51,873 nt of DNA from an uncultured Clostridia bacterium (GCA_947174975.1 CAMWLA010000001.1:1-51873); one strand, 5' to 3'; positions 4,870 through 26,905 are shown, counted from the stretch's first letter. Translations and numbers: made by a program. Notes: a model not told the origin generated them from the letters alone.

Positions 4870-4898
4870 TTGAATTAAAATATCGGTTGTGATATAAT
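4870..4898 (+). promoter_or_regulatory. sigma-70-type promoter driving leader copy 1
   Basis: TTGAAT (4870-75), 17-nt spacer, extended -10 TGaTATAAT (4890-98). Confidence 0.6.
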
Positions 4899-4934
4899 AA
4901 ACAAGTAAAATAAAAACAGAGGTTATTAATAATA

Positions 4935-5119
4935 ACGGCGCAAGCAAAACCACGCTTTTGCGCAGCGCAACACAATTTGCGAAAACTTTCGCCTCGGCGG
5001 GGTGAATTCGCGCGATTATATAATTGTTTGCTCTTAAAATCGCGCGAAGAGGGCAAGAAGCCCTCAAATCACGAAAAATAGTTTTCGCAGAATAGAAAAC
5101 TATTTTTGTGAGGAGATTT
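4935..5119 (+). promoter_or_regulatory. structured 5' leader, type 2, copy 1 (upstream of the HIT/GltD-like operon)
   Basis: ~185 nt alignable end to end with 8856-9042. Hairpins GCAAAA-CCACGC-TTTTGC, GAGGGC-AAGAA-GCCCTC (5049-5065), and a 13-bp stem 5074-5086/5095-5107 with loop GCAGAATA, flanked by TCAC...GTGA that runs into the SD GTGAGGAG. Confidence 0.7.
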
Positions 5120-5539
5120 ATGAAAGATAAAAATTGCGGTTACTGTATGCGCGGAGAAATTCTTGAAAAATTCGGAATTTTTATCTGCGATTTAAAGGTA
5201 AGCTCTTTAATACTTTTCAAGGAACAGTCCAAGCGCGGACGGTGCATAGTTGCGTACAAAGACCACGTAAGCGAAATAGTAGATATATCCGACGAGGAAA
5301 GAAATCTGTTCTTCGAGGATGTAACGAGGGCGGCTAAGGCTATACATAAGGTGTTCAGACCCGATAAGCTTAACTACGGCGCGTACGGCGATACCGGTTG
5401 CCATCTTCACGTTCACCTCTGCCCCAAATATAAGGACGGCGACGAATGGGGCGGCACCTTTACGATGAACCCGCAAAAGGTTTATTTAACCGACGAAGAA
5501 TACGCCGAAATGATTGCTCAAATAAAAAAGGAATTATAA
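5120..5539 (+). CDS. HIT-family (histidine triad) protein
   Basis: ORF 5108..5539 begins at a GTG that is really the SD (GTGAGGAG). True ATG at 5120 (MKDKNCGYC). Histidine triad CHLHVHLCP near the C-terminus. Confidence 0.85.
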   Translation: MKDKNCGYCMRGEILEKFGIFICDLKVSSLILFKEQSKRGRCIVAYKDHVSEIVDISDEERNLFFEDVTRAAKAIHKVFRPDKLNYGAYGDTGCHLHVHLCPKYKDGDEWGGTFTMNPQKVYLTDEEYAEMIAQIKKEL

Positions 5540-5552
5540 GAGGTTTTATATT

Positions 5553-6776
5553 ATGGCTCATAACGTTATTGCCGAAGCAAAAAGATGCTTAAACTGTAAA
5601 AATCCGATGTGCAGAAAAGGCTGCCCCATAAGCACCCCCATTCCGCAGTTCATATCCTCGTTTTTAAACGGCGACATTAAGAGCGCGGGAAAAATGCTTT
5701 TTGAAAATAACCCGCTGTCCGTCGTCTGCTCGATAGTGTGCAACCACGGCAACCAGTGCCAAGGTCACTGCGTGCGCGGAATTAAGGGCGAACCCGTTGA
5801 GATAAGCACTATCGAAAACTTCGTTTCGTCGCACTATATCGACAGCTTAGAGCTGGAGAAAGCCGAACCTAACGGCATTAAAGTTGCCGTCGTCGGCGCG
5901 GGCCCCGCGGGCATTACCATTGCGATAAAAATGGCTCAGCTCGGCTACGACGTGACTATATTCGAATCGAAGAGCGAAATCGGCGGTGTACTCAGATACG
6001 GCATTCCCGAATTCAGACTTCCCAAATCGATAGTAGACAGATATCTCAAAATTTTATATAAGTTAGGCGTAAAAATAAAGTTCAACGTAACTATAGGCAA
6101 GGCTTTCGGAATTGAAGAGCTTTTCCGCGACGGCTTCAAGGCAATATCCATAGGAACGGGCGTTACCTGGCCCATACCCCTCAACGTAAAGGGCGAAACG
6201 CTCGGCCACGTGCATTACGGAGTACACTATCTCGAACGCCCCGACGTCTATCAGCTCGGCGATAACGTAGTGATTATCGGCGCGGGAAACGTTGCAATGG
6301 ACGTTGCGCGAACGGCACTTCGCCACGGCTCGAAAAACGTTAAAATTACCGTCAGAAGCGACAAGTACTCGGCAAGCGACGAGGAAAAGGAATACGCCGA
6401 AATCGAGGGTGCGGAATTCGTTTACTGCAAACAACCCGTCGAAATCACCGACGAGGGCGTATTGTTCGTCGACACCGTGTGCGACGAAAACCACGACATA
6501 AAATCGGTATCCGAAACGCCTGAGCTTATGAAAGCCGATTCGGTTATAATATGTATTTCACAGCGCCCCTCGAACCTTATTCTCACCCAGACCGAAGGAC
6601 TTGAAACCAACGCCCGCGGACTTGTTAAGATAAACGAGGACGGCTCCACTTCCCGCCCCGGGCTGTTTGCTTCGGGCGACGTCGTACGCGGAGCAAAGAC
6701 CGTCGTAGAGGCTGCGGAAACTTCAAAGCGCGTAGCCTACGCAATGGACGCGTATTTGAAAAGTCTGAAAAAATAA
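5553..6776 (+). CDS. GltD-like NAD(P)H-dependent FAD/Fe-S oxidoreductase (glutamate synthase small-chain family)
   Basis: N-terminal Cys cluster CLNCKNPMCRKGCP, plus CSIVCNHGNQCQGHC. Two Rossmann motifs VAVVGAGPAGITIA and VVIIGAGNVAMDVART. 13 nt after the HIT stop. Confidence 0.85.
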   Translation: MAHNVIAEAKRCLNCKNPMCRKGCPISTPIPQFISSFLNGDIKSAGKMLFENNPLSVVCSIVCNHGNQCQGHCVRGIKGEPVEISTIENFVSSHYIDSLELEKAEPNGIKVAVVGAGPAGITIAIKMAQLGYDVTIFESKSEIGGVLRYGIPEFRLPKSIVDRYLKILYKLGVKIKFNVTIGKAFGIEELFRDGFKAISIGTGVTWPIPLNVKGETLGHVHYGVHYLERPDVYQLGDNVVIIGAGNVAMDVARTALRHGSKNVKITVRSDKYSASDEEKEYAEIEGAEFVYCKQPVEITDEGVLFVDTVCDENHDIKSVSETPELMKADSVIICISQRPSNLILTQTEGLETNARGLVKINEDGSTSRPGLFASGDVVRGAKTVVEAAETSKRVAYAMDAYLKSLKK

Positions 6777-6821: not shown

Positions 6822-8243
6822 TTACCATTTTGTAGGTTCGCCGTTTACGTAACGCCAATAGTTGCCGTCTTGCTCCGGCCGGGTTGCCGAGTAGAAATAT
6901 ACTTCGGCGGGAACGGTATCGTTCGCGCCCGTAAAATTATCGTTACCCGATTTGCCGATTTTAACCGACGCCCACTCTTCCGCCGTGCCCTTATAGTACA
7001 CGGTATTCAGCGCCGTACATCTGTAAAAGGCAAAGCTTATAATGTTTTTCAAGCTTTTGGGCAAAACCACGCTTTCAAGCTGATCGCAGCCGTAAAACGC
7101 AGAGTAGCTTATCCTTGTTACTTTTTCGCCTATCGTTACGGTTTTAATTCCGCAAAAGCTGAACGAGAAATCGGGTATTTCGGTTAATTTATCGGAAAGC
7201 GTTATTTTGTCTACTTGGTTCGAAGTGTCGCCGGTAACGAAACCCGCGTTCCCGCCGAACATGACTATGCCGAAGCCGATTGAACTTACGGTTGACGGCA
7301 TTTTAAATTCAGCGAGGGATACGCACCCGCCGAACGCGCAGTCGCCGATATATTCAAGCCCTTCTTTCAAGTTGAGCGTTTTTATAGCGGTGCAGTCGGA
7401 AAATGCGGAAGCTTCTATCCTTTTGACGCTTGCGGGAACAGTTAGCTCCTCAATTGAAGCGCAACGCAAAAACGCGTATTCGCCGATTACTTCAACTTGC
7501 CTTCCGAATTCGACTGTTTTCAGAGAAGGGCAGTCGGCAAAGGCAAGCTCGCCCATTTTCAAAAGATTGCCATTGATTTTTATGCTTTCAAGTTGTCCGC
7601 AACCGTAAAATGCACTCTGCCCGATACTTCTTGCACCCTCTATAGTTACGCTTTTAATATTTTCACACTCGTAAAACGCAAAATCGGGAACTTGCGTCGC
7701 GTTGAAAGGAACGACCAAATCTTCAACGGGCTTACCGCCGACACAAAATTCCGTCGCAAAATACATAGGGTTTGACGCCATATTCGCAAACGAAATATTA
7801 CACCAGCTTTCAACGCTTAACGCGGACACGCTTTCAAGATTTTCACATCTTGCAAAGGCGTTTGCGCCTATCACTTCTGCTTTTTCTATGTGTACGCTTT
7901 TAAGATTTACGCAACCCGCAAAGGCGTTTGCGCCCACTTCTGTCACATAATATGGAATAGATATGCTTTCAAGCTGAGTATAGCCGTAAAACGCATTTTC
8001 TTCGATAGCGATTACGGGGCGGTTATTTCTTATGAACGTCGGAATATATGCATCCTTCACAGTATCGGAAATACCACTTACGGTATACCCCATTCCGCCC
8101 TTCGGATTTTTAACAAGCGTATATAATAAACCGTCGTGCGTTTCCGTATCGCCGACTTTATCATTCGACCAGCACGCGGACAAGCCGAACGCGCATGTGC
8201 CGAGTAAAATCAGCGACGAGACCAAAGAAAGAAATTTTTTCAT
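6822..8243 (-). CDS. BspA-type leucine-rich-repeat surface lipoprotein
   Basis: ORF 6822..8261 (TTG) trimmed to ATG at 8243. MKKFLSLVSSLILLGTCAFGLSAC lipobox. Repeated ~23-aa units (IG..AF..C..L.S..I) typical of BspA-like LRR_5 repeats. Confidence 0.8.
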   Translation of the reverse strand: MKKFLSLVSSLILLGTCAFGLSACWSNDKVGDTETHDGLLYTLVKNPKGGMGYTVSGISDTVKDAYIPTFIRNNRPVIAIEENAFYGYTQLESISIPYYVTEVGANAFAGCVNLKSVHIEKAEVIGANAFARCENLESVSALSVESWCNISFANMASNPMYFATEFCVGGKPVEDLVVPFNATQVPDFAFYECENIKSVTIEGARSIGQSAFYGCGQLESIKINGNLLKMGELAFADCPSLKTVEFGRQVEVIGEYAFLRCASIEELTVPASVKRIEASAFSDCTAIKTLNLKEGLEYIGDCAFGGCVSLAEFKMPSTVSSIGFGIVMFGGNAGFVTGDTSNQVDKITLSDKLTEIPDFSFSFCGIKTVTIGEKVTRISYSAFYGCDQLESVVLPKSLKNIISFAFYRCTALNTVYYKGTAEEWASVKIGKSGNDNFTGANDTVPAEVYFYSATRPEQDGNYWRYVNGEPTKW

Positions 8244-8739: not shown

Positions 8740-8814
8740 AATAATTAACTCCTTAATTAGCTTGTTTATATTATAAACGATTAACCATAATATGTCAATC
8801 AATCGGCGTTTTTA

Positions 8815-8843
8815 TTGCATAAATTTTTCAATTAATATATAAT
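8815..8843 (+). promoter_or_regulatory. sigma-70-type promoter driving leader copy 2 / rng
   Basis: TTGCAT (8815-20), 17-nt spacer, TATAAT (8838-43). The predicted start falls at about the first conserved leader nucleotides. Confidence 0.6.
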
Positions 8844-8855
8844 TAAGAAAAATAA

Positions 8856-9042
8856 ACGGCGCAAGCAAAACCACGCTTTTGCGCAGCGCAACCCAATTTG
8901 CGCAAACCTACGCCTCGGCAGTTTGAATTGGCGCAACTATATGATAAGTTTGCCATTGGGGTTGCGCCAAGAAAGGCAGCGCCTTTAAAATCACGAAATT
9001 TTATCGTCGCAGAATAGACGATAAAATTTGTGAGGTAATAAT
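8856..9042 (+). promoter_or_regulatory. structured 5' leader, type 2, copy 2 (upstream of rng)
   Basis: Same architecture as copy 1. AAAGGC-AGC-GCCTTT (8972-8986). 13-bp stem 8996-9008/9017-9029 with the identical loop GCAGAATA. TCAC (8991-94) pairs with GTGA (9030-33) of the SD GTGAGG. Confidence 0.7.
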
Positions 9043-10527
9043 ATGAAGAAAACTCTGTATTTCGATGAATATTGCGGGTACGCCGTTTCGGCGGTTACCG
9101 AGAACGGCAAGCTGACCGAATTCAATTTCGAAAAAGACGGCAACCGTTCTATTAAGGGCAACATATATAAGGGTAAAATAGTAAACGTTCTCAACGGAAT
9201 GCAAGCGGCTTTCGTCGACTGCGGGTTAGAGCGGAACTGTTATTTATCCGCGGACGACGCTATCCCCTACGCCGAAAAGTACGACGGCAGTCACGGTGAA
9301 ATTACCTTTCCAGAATTGAAAGAGGGCGACGACGTAATCGTTCAAGTAGTCAAACCGCCCGTAGGCAAAAAGGGCGCAAAGGTTACGCTGTTCCCATCGT
9401 TCGTAGGCAAAACTATAATATATCTGCCGAACACGCCGTTCGTCGGGGTTTCGCGCAAAATTGCAGACGACGAGCTGAGAAAAAGCCTTGCGTATTCGGT
9501 AAGCAGACTTATACGCGGCGACGAGGGTATCGTTCTTCGCACCGCTTCGCCCTACACCCGCCGAGACCTTTTGGAAAGCGAGCTTACAAGCCTTAAAACA
9601 ATTTATCAAAACGTTTTACAAAGCTTTGAAAGCGCGGAAACGGGTGCGGTTCTTTATTCGGAAATGGGGCTTTTGAAACGCGTTCTGCGCGATATATTGA
9701 GCTATGATATCGAGGAAATAGTAGTCGGAAACGAGAAGCTTAAAAAAGTAATCGAGGGGTTTTACACCCTTTTCCCGCCCGCACGGCGCAGACCTATTAC
9801 CGTACATAATTCGGGCAAGGATATGCTTGACGAATACGGCATAGGCGCACAGATTGCAAAAATGATTGAACCGCGCGCAGAGCTTGAAAACGGAGCGTAC
9901 CTCGTCATAGACAAGTGCGAAGCGCTGACCGCTATCGACGTGAACACCGGCGCATTTACCGGCGGCGACAACCTCGAGCAGACGGTATATTATACCAACG
10001 TGCTTGCGGCGCGCGAGATCGCGCGGCAAGTGAAGCTCAGAAATATCGGCGGAATAGTCGTCGTCGACTTTATTGATATGGCAAGCGAAGCGCACAACAA
10101 AACGGTTGTGGAAGAGCTTGAAAACGCACTTAAAAACAACGGCTCTAAATGTTCGGTAAGTCAGATGTCTCAGTTCGGACTTGTGGAATTTACGAGAAAA
10201 CGCGAGGGTTCGGGCGCACTGTCCTTGATGTGTAAGCCTTGTTCGAGGTGCAGAAACGGCTTTATAAAATCGCCCAAGTTCACTATGCTTGAAACGCGTG
10301 CAAAGCTTTTGCACCTTTACGCGGAAGGACATAGGCGCATACTTTTGGACGTTGCCGCGGATATGTCGGAACAGCTTTCAAGCTGGACTGCATTCTCCGA
10401 CGACTTAAAAACGCGCATGCCCGATTTACAGATTTACCTGACCCCGCACCGCTCCTATCCGGACGACCAAGTGCGTATCCGTTGCGGGCAGTTTGAAATT
10501 AAAGAAAATACGGTTAAATTATATTAA
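9043..10527 (+). CDS. rng: ribonuclease G/E family endoribonuclease
   Basis: 494 aa. S1 domain IYKGKIVNVLNGMQAAFVDCGLERNCYL. Catalytic-core blocks TAIDVNTG, RNIGGIVVVDFIDM and GLVEFTRKR. Confidence 0.9.
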   Translation: MKKTLYFDEYCGYAVSAVTENGKLTEFNFEKDGNRSIKGNIYKGKIVNVLNGMQAAFVDCGLERNCYLSADDAIPYAEKYDGSHGEITFPELKEGDDVIVQVVKPPVGKKGAKVTLFPSFVGKTIIYLPNTPFVGVSRKIADDELRKSLAYSVSRLIRGDEGIVLRTASPYTRRDLLESELTSLKTIYQNVLQSFESAETGAVLYSEMGLLKRVLRDILSYDIEEIVVGNEKLKKVIEGFYTLFPPARRRPITVHNSGKDMLDEYGIGAQIAKMIEPRAELENGAYLVIDKCEALTAIDVNTGAFTGGDNLEQTVYYTNVLAAREIARQVKLRNIGGIVVVDFIDMASEAHNKTVVEELENALKNNGSKCSVSQMSQFGLVEFTRKREGSGALSLMCKPCSRCRNGFIKSPKFTMLETRAKLLHLYAEGHRRILLDVAADMSEQLSSWTAFSDDLKTRMPDLQIYLTPHRSYPDDQVRIRCGQFEIKENTVKLY

Positions 10528-12026: not shown

Positions 12027-12506
12027 ATGTTACACGTATACCCGCTGAAAGATACAGACAGCGAAATATTCAAAAAACTTTTCAAAGATTATTATGCCGA
12101 GCTGGACTGCGCGGACGATACCGCGCACCTCGTCGACGAATATATAATCCCCGATATGATTGCGGGGCTTCTGCACGTCGATCTCATTGCGGACGGCGCC
12201 GTTTCGGGCTTCGTCATTTATCAGATAGACGATATCAACAACGAATGGAATTTTAAAGAGGGCTGGGGCGATATCCGCGAAATTTATATTACCCCCTCAC
12301 GCCGCCGTCAAGGTTTGGGCAAGTTCCTTTTATTTACCGCCGAAATGAAGCTGAAAGAGGCGGGCGCGAAAAAATCGTATTGTCTGCCTTATGAGGGTGC
12401 AGCTGCCTTCTTTACCGCGTGCGGATATAGCGATTCATCCGAATACTGCGAAGATTTGGACTGCACCGTGTTTGAAAAAAATAATCTGAATAACTGTTGT
12501 AAATGA
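12027..12506 (+). CDS. GNAT-family N-acetyltransferase
   Basis: ORF trimmed to MLHVYPLKD at 12027, downstream of the rpmA terminator. Acetyl-CoA motif RRRQGLGKFLL. Confidence 0.8.
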   Translation: MLHVYPLKDTDSEIFKKLFKDYYAELDCADDTAHLVDEYIIPDMIAGLLHVDLIADGAVSGFVIYQIDDINNEWNFKEGWGDIREIYITPSRRRQGLGKFLLFTAEMKLKEAGAKKSYCLPYEGAAAFFTACGYSDSSEYCEDLDCTVFEKNNLNNCCK

Positions 12507-13171
12507 ATAAAATTATCTATGCACGCCGTGAAAATTTAAGCGGCGAAATAACAACAAAAAGCTTTGAAATTCTTATACCGGATAGCGGCCGTATAACCGT
12601 TATACCTCCGCTGAAAAAGCATTGTGCTGAATTTGAGGGGATAAGAATTATCTTTGACCATGCCTTGCTACCCTTTAACGATATTTGCGAAATCGACGAC
12701 AGCGAAGACGGTGCAATTGCTTTTTGCGCAAAACAAGCATTGAAATATTTCGAAAGCGGGACCGCAAAAGTAGAGTTGATTTTAGCGTCGCTCGGAAATC
12801 TTTTAATAAGCTACGTAACGGCGTTCGGCACCGAAAAGCAGTTTTCGCCAGTGGTAGAGCTTGTCCGCGCGGAAATTGCAAAGGGCGTATCCGATTGCAG
12901 TTTTTCCATTCAAGACGCATTGAAAAAACTGCCGTTAAATTACGACTATATCAGAAAGCTTTTCAAAAAGGAAACGGGCGCAACGCCGTACGAATACCTT
13001 TTAAAGGAAAGAATGGCGCTTGCACAGCAACTTATACTTAGCGGAATTTCCAACAAGTTTTCAAGCTACACGATTTCGCAGATTTCCGAAGCGTGCGGAT
13101 ATTCCGAACCCCTCTACTTTTCGCGGGTGTTCAAACAATACTTCGGCGTTTCCCCAAGTGAATATAAATAA
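12503..13171 (+). CDS. AraC-family transcriptional regulator
   Basis: C-terminal double HTH (YIRKLFKKETGATPYEYLLKERMALAQQLI ... ISEACGYSEPLYFSRVFKQYFGVSPSEY). ATGA overlap with the GNAT stop. Confidence 0.8.
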   Translation: MNKIIYARRENLSGEITTKSFEILIPDSGRITVIPPLKKHCAEFEGIRIIFDHALLPFNDICEIDDSEDGAIAFCAKQALKYFESGTAKVELILASLGNLLISYVTAFGTEKQFSPVVELVRAEIAKGVSDCSFSIQDALKKLPLNYDYIRKLFKKETGATPYEYLLKERMALAQQLILSGISNKFSSYTISQISEACGYSEPLYFSRVFKQYFGVSPSEYK

Positions 13172-13199
13172 AGGAAGTACGGCGTACTTCCTTTTTTTG
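13171..13199 (+). terminator. rho-independent terminator after the AraC gene
   Basis: Stem AAGGAAGTAC/GTACTTCCTT plus TTTTT. Confidence 0.8.
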
Positions 13200-13200
13200 T

Positions 13201-13638
13201 TTACAGATAATCCGGTATTTGCAGTCCTAATTCTCGATATAAAAATCTGTACGTTTCGGGAATAGCCTTATCTGACGTAAGCTCACTGAAAAACTTATTT
13301 GAATCAGATGTTTCTTTGATATATCTAACTACAAAAATGATTGTATTTTCTCTTGCGACGTCTGAATACGTGTTAAGAATTTTTCTCATTTCTTTTAACG
13401 GGCACGGCAGTTCGTTTTGAAAATACGCCAGCTCCTCTTCCGATATGCCTCTATTCAAATCGTGAAAAGCCGCACAACGCCAGCTTCCGTCATCGACTTG
13501 CCAAGCGTATATGTTCGGGCCTCCCCCGCCTTTGCTTACCATATGATAATAGGGTGTATAATCGTAACTTTTACAGCCGCAAAAGAGTATTACAAACGGC
13601 ATTAATAAACAAAGCAAAACCGCCGCAGTTTTTTTCAT
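13201..13638 (-). CDS. putative lipoprotein, unknown function
   Basis: MKKTAAVLLCLLMPFVILFCGC lipobox. 145 aa. 7 nt downstream of the XRE-membrane gene. Confidence 0.65.
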   Translation of the reverse strand: MKKTAAVLLCLLMPFVILFCGCKSYDYTPYYHMVSKGGGGPNIYAWQVDDGSWRCAAFHDLNRGISEEELAYFQNELPCPLKEMRKILNTYSDVARENTIIFVVRYIKETSDSNKFFSELTSDKAIPETYRFLYRELGLQIPDYL

Positions 13639-13645
13639 AATGAGC

Positions 13646-14245
13646 CTACCTCCTACCGTTCATATGGAAAGTATCCGAACCGATAATTCCTATACCGACC
13701 ACTAACGTTATTATAAACAGACAAACGGTAAGTCCGAAAGCTACTCCTTCGGCAATTCTTAAAATCTTTTCGTGCTTGAAGTTACCGAACAGTAAAACGG
13801 TTGTATAACCCGAATTTAAAAGACATAAAATAAACGAAATTATTGCAAGCGGATTTTTTACTTTGAAATATGCGCTTAAAAGATTGATCGTGCCGTAGAC
13901 GTATAGGCTTGAGCTTGTGAACTCGTTACCGTAACTGAAAATAGGAATCACCAACAACAGTAAAAGCGTTAACGAAATAATGAGTGCGACTGCCGTCAGC
14001 GAAATCCACAAAGGTTTTAAAGAAGATTTAACTGTCGCTGAAATTCTCTCTTCCTCGGGCATCAATTCACTTGTAGCAACTTTAAAATAATCGGCAAGCC
14101 GTTTTAAATTTTCCTCGGTCGGATATACCGCACCGCTTTCGTATTTAGTTATAAGCGTCCGCGAAACCAGAATTTCGTTTGCGAGATTTTCCTGCGTAAG
14201 ATTTTTCTGTTTTCTAAACTGCCTCAATTTTTCCGAAAAACTCAA
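13646..14245 (-). CDS. membrane-anchored XRE-family HTH protein
   Basis: N-terminal HTH LRQFRKQKNLTQENLANEILVSRTLITKYESG, followed by about four hydrophobic helices. Confidence 0.75.
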   Translation of the reverse strand: MSFSEKLRQFRKQKNLTQENLANEILVSRTLITKYESGAVYPTEENLKRLADYFKVATSELMPEEERISATVKSSLKPLWISLTAVALIISLTLLLLLVIPIFSYGNEFTSSSLYVYGTINLLSAYFKVKNPLAIISFILCLLNSGYTTVLLFGNFKHEKILRIAEGVAFGLTVCLFIITLVVGIGIIGSDTFHMNGRR

Positions 14246-14320
14246 AGATATACCTCCTTTACAACTTCATTATATCATACAAATTTATTAAATCCATATT
14301 TCATGATGTGAATAAATGTG

Positions 14321-14353
14321 AAAACAAGCGGAGCTTTCAGCTCCGCTTGTTTA
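14321..14353 (-). terminator. terminator after the alpha/beta hydrolase gene
   Basis: 13-bp stem AAACAAGCGGAGC/GCTCCGCTTGTTT. Confidence 0.7.
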
Positions 14354-14356
14354 TTA

Positions 14357-15334
14357 TTATGCGTTAAAATTATTTTTGAAAAACTCTTCTAACTTGTTAA
14401 AGGGGATTATATCTTTTCTGTCGTACAAATCGGTATGAACCGCGTCGGGAATGATAAGCAGTTCCTTGTTATCACCCTTTAAATTTTTGAACGCGTCTTT
14501 ACTGAAATAGCACGAATGCGCCTTTTCGCCGTGCATTACAAGCACCGCGCTTCTGATTTCGCTGCTGTATGCAAGTATCGGCATATTGATAAACGAAAGT
14601 GCGGAAGTCTTATTCCAACCGCCGTTGGAATTTAACGAACGCTTGTGGTAACCGCGTTTGGTTTTGTAATAATCGTAATAGTCCTTTACGTAAAACGGCG
14701 CGTCTTCGGGAAGAGGGTCAACCACTCCGCCGCCCAGCTCGTAATTTCCGTTTTTATAATCCGTAATTCTCTGCGCGTTTAAGGCTTTTTTCGTTTCGAA
14801 CCTTGCCTCTTCACTGTCCGCGGAATCGAAATAGCCCTTGGCGTTCACCCTCGTCATATCGTACATTGTGGAAGCAACCGTCGCCTTAATTCGCGTATCG
14901 ATAGCCGCGGCATTGATTGCCATACCGCCCCAGCCGCAAATACCTATGATCCCGATTTTTTCGGCATCGACGTCATTACGGCATGATAGGTAATCGACCG
15001 CCGCGCAGAAATCTTCGGTATTGATATCGGGGGAAGCAACGTATCTCGGCTGACCGCCGCTTTCGCCGGTAAAAGATGGATCGAACGCGATAGTTAAGAA
15101 CCCGCGCTCAGCCAGCTCTTGCGCGTACAGTCCCGACGACTGCTCCTTTACCGCACCGAAAGGCCCGCATACCGCAATGGCGGGAAGCTTACCGTTTGCA
15201 TTTTTCGGAATATACAAGTCAGCCGCAAGTGTTATGCCGTAGCGGTTGTGAAAGGTAACTTTTTCGTGGTTCACCTTGTCGCTTTTTTCAAAAACCTTAT
15301 CCCATTCTTTCGTTAACTTTAATTTTTCTTTCAT
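14357..15334 (-). CDS. alpha/beta hydrolase (dienelactone-hydrolase-like, Cys nucleophile)
   Basis: 325 aa. Nucleophile elbow GIIGICGWGG (G-x-C-x-G). COG1073/YcjY-like layout. C-terminal DAVHTDLYD (His of the triad). Confidence 0.8.
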   Translation of the reverse strand: MKEKLKLTKEWDKVFEKSDKVNHEKVTFHNRYGITLAADLYIPKNANGKLPAIAVCGPFGAVKEQSSGLYAQELAERGFLTIAFDPSFTGESGGQPRYVASPDINTEDFCAAVDYLSCRNDVDAEKIGIIGICGWGGMAINAAAIDTRIKATVASTMYDMTRVNAKGYFDSADSEEARFETKKALNAQRITDYKNGNYELGGGVVDPLPEDAPFYVKDYYDYYKTKRGYHKRSLNSNGGWNKTSALSFINMPILAYSSEIRSAVLVMHGEKAHSCYFSKDAFKNLKGDNKELLIIPDAVHTDLYDRKDIIPFNKLEEFFKNNFNA

Positions 15335-15347
15335 ATCAACACCTTCC

Positions 15348-15944
15348 TTATTTAAGACTAATTCTCACTTGAACGCTTCCTTTGCCCGCACCGAGTAATG
15401 AGCGCAACTCGGAAACGGAATAGCCGTTTATTTTACCTAAACGCGTATACGACCACTCGTTACTGCCGTAGAATAAAACGATTTGATTACCCGAATATAA
15501 AATTACGTCGCCCGCTTCCGTCGTTATCTCGGAATTTTCGGTGGGCAGAGAATGACCTAAACTACCCACTATTTCAAAACCGCCGTAGTCGTTCGCCGTA
15601 TAAGTAATATCACCGTTTTTCAGTATTTCCACAAGCGCGGTGACGGCTTTGTTTTTTGCAAGCGTAACTTCAAGCTTATTGTCGTTTATATACAGATACA
15701 TAGCCGTAATTTCCTTTCCCTCGTCGGGTTGTTGTACCTCGCCCTCGTTTGGTTTTTCTTCGGGCGGCTCTTTGCCCTCCTCGGGTTGCTGCGCATCGTT
15801 CGGCTTCTCTTCTTTCCCCTCGTCGGGTTGCTGCGTTTCGCTGCCGCTTTGCGTTCCGTCCGGAAGTGAATCTGAATTACCGCCGCACCCTGCAAAGGTA
15901 AGCATAACGCACAGTATAAGTAAAAGCGCAAGTAATTTTTTCAT
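15348..15944 (-). CDS. lipoprotein with cyclophilin-like C-terminal domain
   Basis: ORF trimmed to MKKLLALLLILCVMLTFAGC at 15944. Linker with repeats QQPDEGKE/QQPEEGKE. C-terminal DYGGFEIVGSLGHSLPT...GDVILYSGNQIVLFYGSNEWSYTRLGKI resembles the cyclophilin-like family. Confidence 0.65.
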   Translation of the reverse strand: MKKLLALLLILCVMLTFAGCGGNSDSLPDGTQSGSETQQPDEGKEEKPNDAQQPEEGKEPPEEKPNEGEVQQPDEGKEITAMYLYINDNKLEVTLAKNKAVTALVEILKNGDITYTANDYGGFEIVGSLGHSLPTENSEITTEAGDVILYSGNQIVLFYGSNEWSYTRLGKINGYSVSELRSLLGAGKGSVQVRISLK

Positions 15945-15948
15945 GTTT

Positions 15949-16521
15949 CTATTTCCTCGGTACGTCCTTGATTTTGCGGGCGGGTATCCCCGCAACTACG
16001 GTATAAGCTTCTACGTCCTTGGTCACTACGGCACCCGCGGCAATAACCGCACCGTCGCCTACCGTAACGCCCGCAAGTATGGTTGCGTGCGCGCCTACCC
16101 ATACGCCGTTACCGATTTTAACGGGTGCGGCGGTCATATTTGCGCGCTTTTGCGGAATTAAATCGTGATTTAGCGTGGCTATAACGACTTGCTGACCGAT
16201 AAGTGCATTGTCGCCTATTTCTATGCCGCCTTGGTCTTGAAAACAGCAACCGGAATTAATAAATACGTTTTTGCCAACCGTAATATTCAATCCGTAATCT
16301 GCGGAAAACGGCGGAAATATTCCGAACCCTTCGTCAACCTCTTTCCCGATAAGCTTGGAAAACAGCTTCCTCAATTTTTTGGGATTTTGATAAGCGCCGT
16401 TCATTTTGGCCGTTATTTTACGCGCCCTTTGCGCCGCCCCGTGCATATGCTTATGCTCTTCCGACCCGGCAAATATATAACTGCTCTTTTTTATAGCATT
16501 TTTGAATTCTTCACTGTTCAT
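15949..16521 (-). CDS. sugar O-acetyltransferase (Maa/LacA-like, left-handed beta-helix)
   Basis: Hexapeptide repeats [49 protein letters not shown]-terminal AGIPARKI. Confidence 0.85.
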
Positions 16522-24070: not shown

Positions 24071-26728
24071 TTATTTTGCCGTGCCGTTTAAGATGGGTTC
24101 GAGATAAGCCCAGTAAGCTTTTGCCGTAGTCCAGCCGTCGGCATAAACGATTTGTCTGTTTTCTGCGAGTTTTGAAATTTTAGCTCCGTTGGTAACTAAC
24201 GGCTTATCAAGCAGATCTTCGATAGAAGTATAATCCACAACTACACTTTGCATATCATAATGTCCGCTCGTTCCGTAAAGAATGATGTAGTTCATTATGC
24301 TGAAGAAGCTGTCGTCTGTTCTCTTTTCGCCGGTCAGATACCTGAAGCTAAGCTGGTTGGAAGCATTGAGCACGTTCCTCTGGAAGTCTTCGGCTACGGG
24401 AAGTCCCGTGGGAACACAAGTAAACCAGTAATTGTTAGCGTCGATATCGAGGGACATACCCTTAATTATACCCTTATCAAGCGCCGTGCCGACGATCTTT
24501 GCGCCCGCCTGACCCATCTTGGAGGTAAGCTGGTTTTCGAACGACTGGTTCTTTACGCCGATAGGAAGGGTTGAACCGATGAGATAACGCGCATAGTTGT
24601 TATAGTTGAGTTTTACGTCGGCAAGGTCGCCGGTGAAGTTGGTTACACCGTCAAGTCTCTTACCCTTAAACGACTCATAGAATTTATCGGTTATGGTGGG
24701 GGTAATCGCTCCCTTGTAGTCGGAACCGGCATATTTAACGCCCTTGTAGGTGAAGTAGTTCTCGGGAACATTCTTTCCGGTTTTAGGGTCTACTTTAGTC
24801 TTAGGATTGGACTGTACTTCGTTGTACCAGAAGCCGCCCTTACCGTCTGCATTCTCAGCCATGGGGCCGAAGGTGGAAACGATTTGTCCGTCTTCCGAAT
24901 ACAGATAGTCGATGAACTGCAAAGCCGCGTCAAGCTTTTTCTCGTCCTTTGCTACCGCGCCGTTAACCGCAAGACCGGAGGTCTTGGTTGAACGCCAGCT
25001 TTCGGTAAATCTGAAATACTCGTCTTCGGAATAAGAACCGTTACCGTCAACGTCCCAAGTGGAAACGGGGGTCATTACCGGTGCGAAGTAGTAGCCCTTA
25101 GGTATAGTACCCGCTTCCGTATAGGATACGCCGTTATCCTCAACCTTTAAACCGGCAAGGGTCTGCGACTGCGAATAATCGTAAGCCATAAAGTACTCGG
25201 TTTTACCCTTATTATCGCCGATACCGAGACCGGAAGCCGTCTGATAAGCTTTCATATCCTTGTAATCGGCTATCAGATTTTCACTTCTGAGGGCATGCAT
25301 TTTCTCCATTGCCTGGTAGAAAACTTTTTCCGTACGAGCGTCTTTAAGGTCGCCGTTATTGTCGATATAGGTATACTCAAGTCTCGAAGTACCGCCACGC
25401 ACGCCGTAGAGCTGGCACGCAAGGCTTACCATAGTGGGAGTTCTGTCGTTTGTTCCCGCACGGGGTGTAATTCCGTCGATAGTCTTACCGCTACCTACAA
25501 GCACGCTTGCGTTCGTCTTTACGCAGCGGAGCATTGCTACTAATTCGTCAACGTCCCAGCATGCGTCGTAACCGGTGAAGAGATTTGCACGGTTTGTAGC
25601 TGAATAAACGCTTTCACCCTTTTCGTTCTTATAGCATACGTCGATATATGCGCGGAAAAGGTTGACAAGCTGTTCGCCCGAAGCGTTAATATTTTCTTTG
25701 AGGGCTGCGTTCATAACGTCAACGATATTACCGCTTGTGCCCGCGTAAGCCTTATTGTTGGTTATTGCTTTATAAGCAGTGGCAAGCGGGGTATTTCCGC
25801 CTAACGCGGTAACAACAGCCGCATAGTCTTTCGTAATTTTCTGGGTATTCGAGCCGTCCGCTGTCAAAGCGTCTACGGTGTAGTTATCTGAACCCATAAA
25901 TGCATCTGCATAGGTTTGGGTTTCTTTTGCACCGCCGGTCTTTATGGTACAGACTTCCGCATACTTAGCCGTAGCGCCGGTAGCGGTGTCGCTGTTCAGA
26001 AGCTTTTCAGCCCAGTCGTGACGGATAAGGCAGTATCTTTCGATATCGTCGTAACCGTCGAAATAAGGAGCAATGTAAATCGTCTGATTAGAGCCGTCGC
26101 TCGTGCTCATACCCTCTTGCAACAGCGAGAGATAGACGATGGGGTTTTCCGCAAGGAACTTCGTGAAGTTGGGCATACGGTCAAGATAGTCCGCAAGATT
26201 TAAAATCATACTGCGGTCGGTTGCCGCATAAGAAACCGCTTCGGAAAGGTCGGTGGTGAAAAGATCGGTTTTTGAATATACCGTTTCACCGTTACGGATA
26301 GTTTCGTACAACTGCTTAAGGTTGTTACCCGTATCGTCGCCCATATACTTGTCATCCCAAGTGATATTGAGGTCTTTGCCCATCTGAACCCAAGCGGGCT
26401 TTACGCTTCTGTTGGAATATTTAACTCCGTCGGGAAGAGTAATTTCATCGCCGATGCCTTGGAAAGTTGTAGACGTAAGCGTACCCTTTGAACCTATTGC
26501 TACGTTTAAGGTTACGTTTCCTCTGTTCTTGTAAACGTCGTAGTTGAGCGATACGCCGTCTTCCTTTAATACGCCGTAATGGTCGGTTCCGACGACTACG
26601 CCTTTGTTTCCGCCGCCGCCGTTATCACCGCTGTCAGGCTTACCGCCGCAAGCGGCAAAAGATAAAGCCATTGTTCCCGCCATAACAACCGATACGGAAG
26701 CTATAGCCAGCTTTTTGAATTTGTTCAT
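24071..26728 (-). CDS. very large (~885 aa) extracellular solute-binding lipoprotein of a carbohydrate ABC importer
   Basis: ORF 24071..26896 trimmed to MNKFKKLAIASVSVVMAGTMALSFAACGG at 26728 (AAGGAGAAAA RBS). Lipobox. Adjacent to two CUT1 permeases. The upstream part of the ORF is repeat copy D. Confidence 0.8.
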   Translation of the reverse strand: MNKFKKLAIASVSVVMAGTMALSFAACGGKPDSGDNGGGGNKGVVVGTDHYGVLKEDGVSLNYDVYKNRGNVTLNVAIGSKGTLTSTTFQGIGDEITLPDGVKYSNRSVKPAWVQMGKDLNITWDDKYMGDDTGNNLKQLYETIRNGETVYSKTDLFTTDLSEAVSYAATDRSMILNLADYLDRMPNFTKFLAENPIVYLSLLQEGMSTSDGSNQTIYIAPYFDGYDDIERYCLIRHDWAEKLLNSDTATGATAKYAEVCTIKTGGAKETQTYADAFMGSDNYTVDALTADGSNTQKITKDYAAVVTALGGNTPLATAYKAITNNKAYAGTSGNIVDVMNAALKENINASGEQLVNLFRAYIDVCYKNEKGESVYSATNRANLFTGYDACWDVDELVAMLRCVKTNASVLVGSGKTIDGITPRAGTNDRTPTMVSLACQLYGVRGGTSRLEYTYIDNNGDLKDARTEKVFYQAMEKMHALRSENLIADYKDMKAYQTASGLGIGDNKGKTEYFMAYDYSQSQTLAGLKVEDNGVSYTEAGTIPKGYYFAPVMTPVSTWDVDGNGSYSEDEYFRFTESWRSTKTSGLAVNGAVAKDEKKLDAALQFIDYLYSEDGQIVSTFGPMAENADGKGGFWYNEVQSNPKTKVDPKTGKNVPENYFTYKGVKYAGSDYKGAITPTITDKFYESFKGKRLDGVTNFTGDLADVKLNYNNYARYLIGSTLPIGVKNQSFENQLTSKMGQAGAKIVGTALDKGIIKGMSLDIDANNYWFTCVPTGLPVAEDFQRNVLNASNQLSFRYLTGEKRTDDSFFSIMNYIILYGTSGHYDMQSVVVDYTSIEDLLDKPLVTNGAKISKLAENRQIVYADGWTTAKAYWAYLEPILNGTAK

Positions 26729-26795
26729 TATTTTCTCCTTATTATTTATAAATAATATAATGATTAACTTAATTATTAATGCGCCTTCAAAAACT

Positions 26796-26905
26796 TTGTA
26801 GATACAAGCAAGACAAGAAGAGTGAGGAAAACTTGAAGGAATGTACAATGAAGTACATGACTGAAAGTTGCCGCAACTCGACACAGTATTGCGCAAGTAT
26901 ATACG
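26796..26905 (+). repeat. structured intergenic repeat, type 1, copy D
   Basis: Lies between the permease stop and the SBP start. P3 ATGTAC/GTACAT (loop AATGAA), P2 AACTT/AAGTT, P1 GAGT/ACTC. T-run 26909-26913. Confidence 0.8.

Follow-up and report, generated by a model that had tools for sequence, protein, structure and literature searches.

A pair of structured leaders in an uncultured Clostridia genome probably belongs to a new family of small mobile non-coding repeats

The window analyzed here, i.e., the whole stretch of 51,873 nucleotides from an uncultured Clostridia bacterium (GCA_947174975.1, CAMWLA010000001.1:1-51873), contains two similar non-coding segments (hereafter, copies A and B), each preceded by a host promoter and followed by a start codon (Table 1). 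Copy A precedes an operon encoding a HIT-family protein and a GltD-like oxidoreductase, and copy B precedes an RNase E/G-family gene (hereafter, RNase G). An earlier note, made from the sequence alone, described the pair as a shared structured element upstream of functionally unrelated genes, and not as a gene duplication. Both points are supported (the gene assignments by Pfam matches). The note further proposed a dedicated cis-regulatory leader, either a riboswitch or a protein- or RNase-binding element, and this proposal did not survive comparison with related genomes. Based on the results below, both segments are probably copies of a new family of small mobile structured non-coding repeats in uncultured gut Clostridia.

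The two copies align end to end with 76.2% identity over 181 nt (blastn: E ~2e-31), close to the three quarters estimated earlier by eye, and their opening 38 nt are identical (0 such matches expected from shuffles). A repeat search, blastn, and a covariance model (see below) found only these two copies in the window. Both fold into the same hairpin series, with minimum free energies (MFE; compared to shuffled controls) of -70.4 kcal/mol for copy A (z = -6.1) and -67.4 kcal/mol for copy B (z = -4.9). Reading both sequences directly, we confirmed that the six differences in the arms of the 13-bp stem of the last hairpin (H6) are all compensated (6/6), and that hairpin H5 covaries between the copies (GAGGGC/GCCCTC in A, AAAGGC/GCCTTT in B). 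The 10-bp stem of H4 covaries as well (TTCGCGCGAT/ATCGCGCGAA versus TTGGCGCAAC/GTTGCGCCAA). In both copies the 13-bp stem is flanked by TCAC...GTGA, which overlaps the Shine-Dalgarno sequence (SD; GUGAGG), and H6 of copy A has a terminator-like shape (A-tract, stem, U-tract). Two details of the first description had to be adjusted. The paired segments are real, but the element proper also takes in ~7–13 AT-rich bases 5' of AACGG. Likewise, a good sigma-70 promoter had been described before each copy: promoter A passes our promoter scan, but promoter B, with a perfect -10 box, is missing from the scan list because its -35 box matches at 3/6 positions only.

Table 1 Features of the two element copies and adjoining genes in the window (SD, Shine-Dalgarno sequence; R1, covariance model; L-numbers, loci of relatives or metagenome contigs carrying or lacking the element)
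Feature	Position	Strand	Basis
Host sigma-70-type promoter of HIT/GltD-like operon, TTGAAT-17-TG-TATAAT	4870..4898	+	Promoter scan: 10/12 matches plus TG
Probable original HIT SD (CAGAGG)	4917..4922	+	Aligned with AAGGGG SD 7-8 nt before ATG in empty sites of L127, L126
AT-rich 5' extension of copy A (TTATTAATAAT)	4923..4933	+	5'-flank position weights; filled/empty comparison; target-site duplications abut extension
Copy A core	4934..5114	+	R1 186.3 bits, E = 4e-59; consensus fold; MFE z = -6.1
Copy A hairpins	H1 4938-4968, H2 4979-4992, H4 5007-5048, H5 5050-5064, H6 5069-5111	+	Consensus and MFE fold
Copy A H6 (base TCAC/GTGA, 13-bp A/U-rich stem, loop GCAGAATA)	5069..5111	+	Family-wide covariation of all 13 H6 pairs
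Copy A 13-bp stem	5' arm 5074-5086, loop GCAGAATA 5087-5094, 3' arm 5095-5107	+	Read from sequence
SD GAGGAG in copy A 3' tail	5110..5115	+	Serves HIT ATG at 5120; first two bases paired in H6
HIT-family protein	5120-5539	+	Pfam
GltD-like Fer4_20/Pyr_redox_2 oxidoreductase	5553-6776	+	Pfam; operon with HIT = 5120..6776
Host promoter of RNase E/G gene, TTGCAT-17-TATAAT	8815..8843	+	-10 box conserved in all relatives (seven-locus alignment)
AT-rich 5' extension of copy B (TAAGAAAAATA)	8844..8854	+	Sequence; syntenic alignment; flank weights
Copy B core	8855..9036	+	R1 175.8 bits; MFE z = -4.9; segment missing at homologous site in L125, L001, L126, L127, L003, L004
Copy B hairpins	H1 8859-8889, H2 8900-8913, H4 8928-8970, H5 8972-8986, H6 8991-9033	+	Fold
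Copy B 13-bp stem	5' arm 8996-9008, loop 9009-9016, 3' arm 9017-9029	+	Read from sequence
SD GAGG in copy B	9032-9035	+	Sequence
RNase E/G-family gene	9043..10527	+	Pfam RNase_E_G, E = 4e-80

Related copies were collected with an exact 22-mer of H1 (GCAAGCAAAACCACGCTTTTGC) as the family seed. The sample is biased towards copies carrying this word, and the true family is therefore wider than seen here; H1 variants (e.g., GCAGGG...CCCTGC) turned up as second copies. In a species-representative genome collection, the 22-mer matched at least 119 stretches from ~60 metagenome-assembled genomes (MAGs). All listed genome matches fall in Candidatus Borkfalkia, Gallimonas, Coproplasma, Borkfalkiaceae, "Christensenella sp." or uncultured Clostridia MAGs, and the carrier MAGs come from chicken, rabbit, mouse, and human gut. 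Metagenome contigs, human gut included, added at least 120 further stretches, and a single 133-kb contig holds at least seven matches. An iterated nhmmer profile gave 390 matches in the 248 collected sequences. The sequence that follows the 22-mer belongs to one family in 110/126 cases, and the remainder includes short ~104-nt versions and a few cases of H1 before unrelated sequence. Copies are ~175–230 bp in length and non-coding, with no conserved open reading frame (ORF) seen, and they form tandem arrays of 3–5 units with ~10-nt spacers at three loci (L016, L071, L067). The short versions contain H1, H2, and H6 only (L014:3865-3968, L014:4160-4263, L065:2561-2662, L074:7530-7637), showing that the element is modular. 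There was no 22-mer match in viral contigs, a phage collection, or a plasmid collection, and thus no obvious vector, and we found no earlier description of the element in the literature on Borkfalkia/Christensenellales.

Some loci show other combinations of modules. At four of them (L094:~1380-1406, L018:3710-3766, L037:101-140, L077:2570-2606), an unrelated conserved sequence (...GCAGCCTTCTCGTCGGCTGTAAGGTAAAACAG) comes after H1 and may represent a second repeat family sharing the 5' module. Another conserved module, GGGAGGCAAG...GCCCTTTGCTATAAT, precedes a subset of copies (L011:~6616-6655, L086, L042, L020, L034, L078) and ends in an extended -10-like box directly 5' of the element. At L071:~7510-7570, a solitary inverted H6-like hairpin adjoins a full copy.

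The fold seen in the window is conserved across the family. Using a sequence-only alignment of 39 diverse copies, RNAalifold predicted 41 pairs, 34 of them with compensatory changes. A covariance model (R1) was then built as the earlier note had suggested, and in its alignment of 150 copies, which are fitted to the model, 95.6% of 5261 cells are paired and both sides change in 40/41 pairs. The covariation score of this alignment is 0.505, compared to 0.14 for shuffled alignments (0/500 reach the observed value) and 0.05–0.09 with partners slid; the sequence-only alignment agrees with the model-fitted one on covariation. Further homologs, the absence of which the note named as a refutation, exist in the hundreds, with compensatory changes, and the covariation of the stems becomes massive once ~150 copies are compared. 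The element is a well-supported, Rfam-grade structured family. In Rfam 15, no family passed its gathering threshold, and at E <= 10 the only matches were to hairpins (microRNA-type models) and due to chance, in line with the earlier failure to recognize a known riboswitch class.

Conserved positions cluster in H1, the junction CCUCAGCG-GGUGAAU, the apical region of H4 (AUUAUAUAAU...GUGNGCCCUUAAAAAU), and the H6 base (UCACG/CGUGA), and the stems vary freely. G.U pairs make up 1.6% of cells; G.U versus A.C counts were 86 vs. 41 on the model-fitted alignment and 17 vs. 10 (not significant) on the sequence-only alignment. Reading the alignment by eye, we found no consistent covariation support for a pseudoknot between the H4 loop and H5, and covariation supported no mutually exclusive helix. 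The lower arms of H6 are A-rich and U-rich, with a mean dG of -17 to -20 kcal/mol, and the tracts beyond the hairpin are short, with means of 3.0 A per 8 nt upstream and 2.3 T per 8 nt downstream. For copy B, a terminator scan gave a flag on the minus strand only. By eye, the consensus ends and helices do not fit integron attC core sites (RYYYAAC/GTTRRRY), nor do the consensus helices fit a group II intron domain-V-like hairpin.

To describe genomic context, elements were masked and ORFs of at least 80 aa were called with a simple caller of our own, which agrees with database gene calls for L126 and L127 (the ORFs involved are 150–1874 aa in length). We counted 107 full copies in the genome set and 97 in an independent metagenome set. 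The downstream gene is co-oriented with the element in 50 cases and opposite in 49 (genome set), or in 28 and 59 cases (metagenome set), i.e., 78 vs. 108 in total. Copies between co-directional genes are sense in 30 cases and antisense in 22. Placement along the gene boundary is polar: 61/83 copies of the genome set (p = 2e-5) and 51/76 of the metagenome set (p = 0.004) lie closer to a gene with their 3' end than with their 5' end, with median 3'/5' gaps of 11/133 nt and 6/130 nt, respectively. In the commonest placement, a convergent gene has its stop codon 0–6 nt from the 3' end of the element. Compared to the convergent stop codon, H6 ends at -9 to +13 nt in 35/49 copies of the genome set, and it ends at most 23 nt from the start codon of a co-oriented gene in 22/50; in the metagenome set, a window of -9 to +25 nt holds 39/59 (convergent stop) and 12/28 (co-oriented start). 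The neighbors are unrelated housekeeping genes (MatE, an aminoacyl-tRNA synthetase, SecB, elongation factor G, a release factor, GidB, GNAT, RNase G). Among 580 flanking ORFs there was no recurrent partner (transposase, reverse transcriptase, TnpB, or recombinase), and the largest protein cluster had 7/580 members. Hundreds of copies in both orientations argue for inserted repeat DNA with a conserved fold, and not for a dedicated gene switch.

The 3' tail of the element depends on what follows it. A purine-rich, SD-like tail after CGUGA occurs in 16/22 gene-proximal co-oriented copies compared to 1/37 opposite-oriented copies, which mostly end in GAAC. The GUGAGG of the window is therefore the gene-proximal variant of the GUGAAC end of the family. 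Because every copy has the UCAC/GUGA pair as its conserved H6 base, whether or not a gene lies downstream, it is no SD-sequestering device specific to leaders. The pairing of TCAC with the GTGA at the SD edge that the earlier note pointed out does exist, but as a general property of H6.

These results bear directly on the riboswitch or protein/RNase-binding leader, in which H1–H5 would be the sensor and H6 with the SD the expression platform. The strongly conserved fold with conserved unpaired positions, the lack of a known family match, and the position of both window copies (after a promoter, before the start codon, and with H6 contacting the SD) are all what such a leader would show. However, it does not account for the excess of opposed over co-oriented downstream genes (108 vs. 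78), the tandem arrays, the unrelated downstream genes, or the SD that lies outside the helix in most co-oriented copies, and the syntenic relatives described next add six orthologous RNase G leaders without a copy and an inverted element in one HIT leader (L003). As a family-wide function this explanation is largely refuted, and we give it almost no weight.

RNase G homologs place the window among uncultured Clostridia MAGs, with seven syntenic loci at 70–83% RNase G identity. Gene order is conserved (RuvX ... (HIT) GltD-like – leucine-rich repeat – SecB – RNase G ... rplU – rpmA), whereas the element is not. In the RNase G leader, it is present in the window only and the site is empty in L125, L001, L126, L127, L003, and L004 (6/6). 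In three of these relatives (L125, 2380-2400; L127, 5985-6003; L004, 9985-10003; compare window 8838-9045), the RNase E/G ATG lies 6–9 nt past the conserved TATAAT, and this spacing suggests that the gene is probably leaderless there. The insertion has thus probably given a gene that had little or no leader of its own, as in those relatives, a structured leader of 190 nt with the SD supplied by the element. The HIT leader is empty in L127 and L126, where it is ~35 nt long with its own SD. The window has a sense copy between the old SD region (CAGAGG, Table 1) and the ATG, and L003 has a copy in the opposite orientation. The HIT-operon promoter is kept in relatives without copy A at this place (aligned in L127, L126, and L003), and CAGAGG is the probable former SD of HIT, displaced by the insertion to ~197 nt upstream of the ATG.

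Further along the block, L127 carries a reversed copy exactly between the HIT stop codon and the GltD SD, with HIT reading five codons into H6, and this junction is empty in the window, L003, and L126. A reversed copy also lies after rpmA in L126, where L127 is empty. In total, there are five separate insertion states across ~8 kb of conserved synteny, and the extra copies of the relatives occupy three further places, all in reverse orientation. The L003 and L127 copies are members of a single subfamily, run in the same direction, and lie on opposite sides of HIT. No same-species empty site was found in a metagenome scan with a SecB-side anchor.

Other parts of the same block are variable as well. 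The HIT gene is missing from L001 and L004 and looks like a variable cassette, too. In L003 (9839-10005), the place of copy B in the RNase G leader is taken by a different insert, ~165 nt long and bounded by a 10-bp terminal inverted repeat (CTTATGAGAG ... CTCTCATAAG); a second copy of it was not found among the collected loci. The spot just 5' of the RNase G start codon thus seems to collect insertions. Between the RNase G neighbor and rplU, L001 alone (12184-16009) carries AbiH-family and MmeI-type restriction-modification genes, a small defence islet.

Several features of the copies resemble those left by transposition. Flank position weights gave a 5' extension with the consensus TTTT-AAA(T/A)AAT(T), and comparison of filled and empty sites shows that the insert brings 7–13 AT-rich bases 5' of ACGG. 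Direct repeats 7 nt or more in length, located directly outside [(A)ATAATT ... CGUGA-tail], flank 8/132 solitary non-redundant copies, compared to 2.2 +/- 1.3 under permutation (0/300 permutations reach 8). Two cases are clear-cut. In L163, the arrangement is AAGGAG-N8-[ATTATGA]-TAATT-element-GTGAGGAGGA-[ATTATGA]GAATAGCG: the start codon is duplicated, the old SD is left behind the insert, and the tail of the element is the new SD. In L026, [GGTTATA] occurs on both sides, with GAGGA inside the element. Because the SD lies within the target-site duplication in both cases, it belongs to the element. The gene with the duplicated start codon (L163:780-840) begins with MRIAAYCRVSTDKADQ, by eye a serine-recombinase-like N-terminus, in this single case. 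Positional orthologs point to turnover at the insertion site. At L071:7324 and L073:2302, the copies differ by 15 doubly changed pairs and belong to different H6 classes, in flanks that are 78–85% identical, and such unlike members at orthologous sites suggest that copies re-insert or are replaced at preferred sites, and do not slowly diverge where they are. They also confound an ortholog-based test for selection acting on copies in place.

Other observations speak against a mobile repeat. Most copies have no recognizable target duplication. By eye, the consensus ends, (A)ATAATT-ACGG... and ...CGTGA(AC/GG), contain no terminal inverted repeats, with only a weak TTACGG/CCGTGAA resemblance, and no transposase, reverse transcriptase, or integrase was found among the 580 flanking ORFs or the 38 window ORFs compared to Pfam. 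In addition, the copies look old: two copies are typically 76% identical (median of pairwise comparisons), and dispersed copies sharing a genome reach 96% at best (L081/L104). The retention of 95.6% of pairs despite this divergence suggests selection beyond mere mobility. Finally, an orthologous leader copy shared by L044 and L048 is 98.6% identical over its 3' 215 nt, compared to 91.6% in the adjacent coding sequence (CDS).

Such conservation is what would be expected if the element were a domesticated, multi-purpose RNA cassette, with mobility only the means of arrival. Resident copies would be selected in place, those antisense after a stop codon as 3'-untranslated region (UTR) terminators or stabilizers and those in sense as SD-supplying leaders. 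Not only do paired positions persist in copies that are only ~76% identical, but 3' ends lie a few nt from stop or start codons, SD-bearing tails are confined to copies with a gene following, and H6 is slightly weaker in leaders (-17.4 vs. -19.8 kcal/mol, p = 0.04); a similar co-option has been proposed for SPRITE repeats (PMC3049150). On the other hand, positional orthologs carry quite different members (L071 vs. L073), sense and antisense copies are mixed between co-directional genes (30 vs. 22), close relatives manage without the copies, and the rarity of G.U pairs comes with weak strand asymmetry. As the full explanation we regard domestication as unlikely, but as a partial one, in which resident copies have been recruited as terminators or leaders, it is a serious alternative to the mobile repeat.

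The AT-rich 5' end could also be read as the promoter (TAAAAT-like box) of a multicopy small-RNA (sRNA) gene that ends at H6. The conserved AT-rich motif lies directly upstream of the element, a subset of copies is preceded by TGCTATAAT, the median 5' gap of ~130 nt leaves room for a promoter, and H6 is terminator-like. Yet the flank logo contains an AT-rich box only, without a conserved -35 or TG motif, tandem units are only ~10 nt apart, no U-tract follows H6 on the sense strand (mean 2.3 T in 8 nt), and insertions duplicate target DNA in a transposon-like manner. An independent sRNA gene is unlikely as the family-wide function, and as an explanation of the repeats it has a very low probability in our view.

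The mobile-repeat interpretation rests on direct observations: members of the repeat family occur in both orientations, differ in presence between related genomes, covary in their stems, abut ORF ends in a polar manner, and can have SD-bearing tails. The element consists of an AT-rich 5' end, the conserved H1, H2–H5, and the long A/U-flanked terminal H6. Under this interpretation, it would have spread through genomes of Borkfalkia/Gallimonas/Coproplasma-type gut Clostridia by inserting, in both orientations, at gene boundaries in AT-rich DNA, at least sometimes with a 7–8-bp target duplication, and its fold would be maintained by compensatory change. In the window, two sense copies appear to have landed downstream of a host promoter and ahead of a start codon, a minority context for the family. 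Their position suggests that they are co-transcribed as ~190-nt 5' leaders, in which the GUGAGG tail variant (usually GUGAAC) would now act as the SD. H6 may serve convergent genes as a terminator or stabilizer, and in leaders it likely lowers expression, or makes it dependent on structure, through partial termination and pairing of the first two SD bases.

A more far-reaching version of this interpretation is a new type of mobile element, in which the mobilizing machinery would recognize a ~185-nt single-stranded fold (RNA or single-stranded DNA) and not terminal inverted repeats. With polar targeting of ORF boundaries, cassette-like replacement of a resident copy, and its own ribosome-binding site or terminator, it would be comparable to a short interspersed nuclear element (SINE) or a structure-guided 'gene-boundary cassette'. 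We consider this version speculative and quite improbable; if true, fold-directed mobility would be a new transposition logic. Independent of the mechanism, the analysis removes a false riboswitch candidate and adds a structured repeat family in a gut lineage that is little known and almost entirely uncultured, a family that would otherwise recur in motif screens as "novel leaders". Many matches lie at contig ends, which suggests that the element fragments MAG assemblies. By rewiring gene starts, it also likely makes closely related gut strains differ in expression.

Outside the two leaders, the window contains a perfect 12/12 sigma-70 consensus promoter (TTGACA-17-TATAAT, 8770-8798, minus strand) that drives SecB, divergent from the RNase G promoter. 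The region 14357-45139 is mostly devoted to pectin/hexuronate utilization (GH88, GH28, pectinesterase, UxaC, altronate dehydratase, KduI, KDPG aldolase, ABC transporters), and a 941-aa ORF (24071-26896) plus several neighboring ORFs in it are without a Pfam match.

Among known systems, the rne 5' UTR autoregulatory leader (Rfam RF00040) and rne-II share with copy B a long structured leader before an RNase E/G gene. Unlike these leaders, the element had no Rfam match even at E <= 10, six close relatives have RNase G genes without it, and it occurs before or behind dozens of unrelated genes. An RNase-binding autoregulatory leader is unlikely as the family-wide function. Classical MITEs (miniature transposable elements with inverted repeats; Correia/NEMIS, ERIC, RU) are non-autonomous, <300 bp, and intergenic, make target duplications, and can carry promoters, terminators, or processing sites that alter how adjacent genes are expressed (Delihas reviews, PMC3184786, PMC2229807). 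The family described here is likewise small, multicopy, and intergenic; target duplications are seen in a subset of its copies and not in most. No terminal inverted repeats or parent insertion sequence (IS) were found, and its copies are far more diverged, with the divergence compensated.

IS200/IS605-derived palindrome-associated transposable elements (PATEs) and repetitive extragenic palindromes (REPs) with their mosaic forms (BIMEs), which involve single-stranded DNA and HUH/Y1 enzymes, resemble the element in their strand-specific structure, subterminal hairpins at both ends (here H1 and H6), lack of inverted-repeat termini, and few G.U-type pairs. They differ in that they make no target duplication, whereas a subset of copies here has 7–8-bp duplications, and in that they have a fixed 4–5-nt target 5' of the left end, whereas the AT-rich 5' motif here arrives with the insert. 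GTAG/CGTC heads and a length of 20–40 bp characterize REPs (PMC3733652). Neither a TnpA nor a RAYT gene was linked to the element in copy flanks or in the window.

Similarities are greater with the small structured repeats of Gram-positive bacteria. The SPRITE, BOX, and RUP repeats of Streptococcus pneumoniae are regarded as parasitic yet likely to affect co-transcribed genes, and they have extensive secondary structure (Croucher et al. 2011, PMC3049150). SPRITE is terminator-like, located close to CDS 3' ends, and without matching IS inverted repeats, and BOX is modular and array-forming (PMC3049150). Compared to these repeats, the Clostridia element has a different sequence and host, is longer than SPRITE (~105 bp) with a conserved multi-helix core, and also occurs directly before start codons, supplying the SD. 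As summarized in PMC3184786 from Okstad 2004, Klevan 2007, and Kristoffersen 2011, bcr1 of the Bacillus cereus group is a repeat of ~155 bp with a non-conserved distribution, short direct repeats, transcription, and compensatory changes. So far as that summary describes bcr1, both are small non-coding interspersed repeats of a Gram-positive lineage that differ in distribution between relatives and keep a multi-hairpin RNA-type fold by compensation. In the same account, short direct repeats flank bcr1, and it is transcribed along with genes; the position of the window copies suggests such co-transcription here. There is no sequence similarity between the two, and the six helices, the 7–8-bp visible target duplication, and the polar placement against ORF ends in the Clostridia element differ from the two-arm cruciform and 5-bp repeat given for bcr1. 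Like bcr1, BOX, RUP, and SPRITE, the element is multicopy, non-coding, < ~300 bp, intergenic, and confined to one lineage, with presence/absence polymorphism and a compensated fold. On the best-supported account, its closest known counterparts would thus be bcr1 and the pneumococcal BOX, RUP, and SPRITE repeats.

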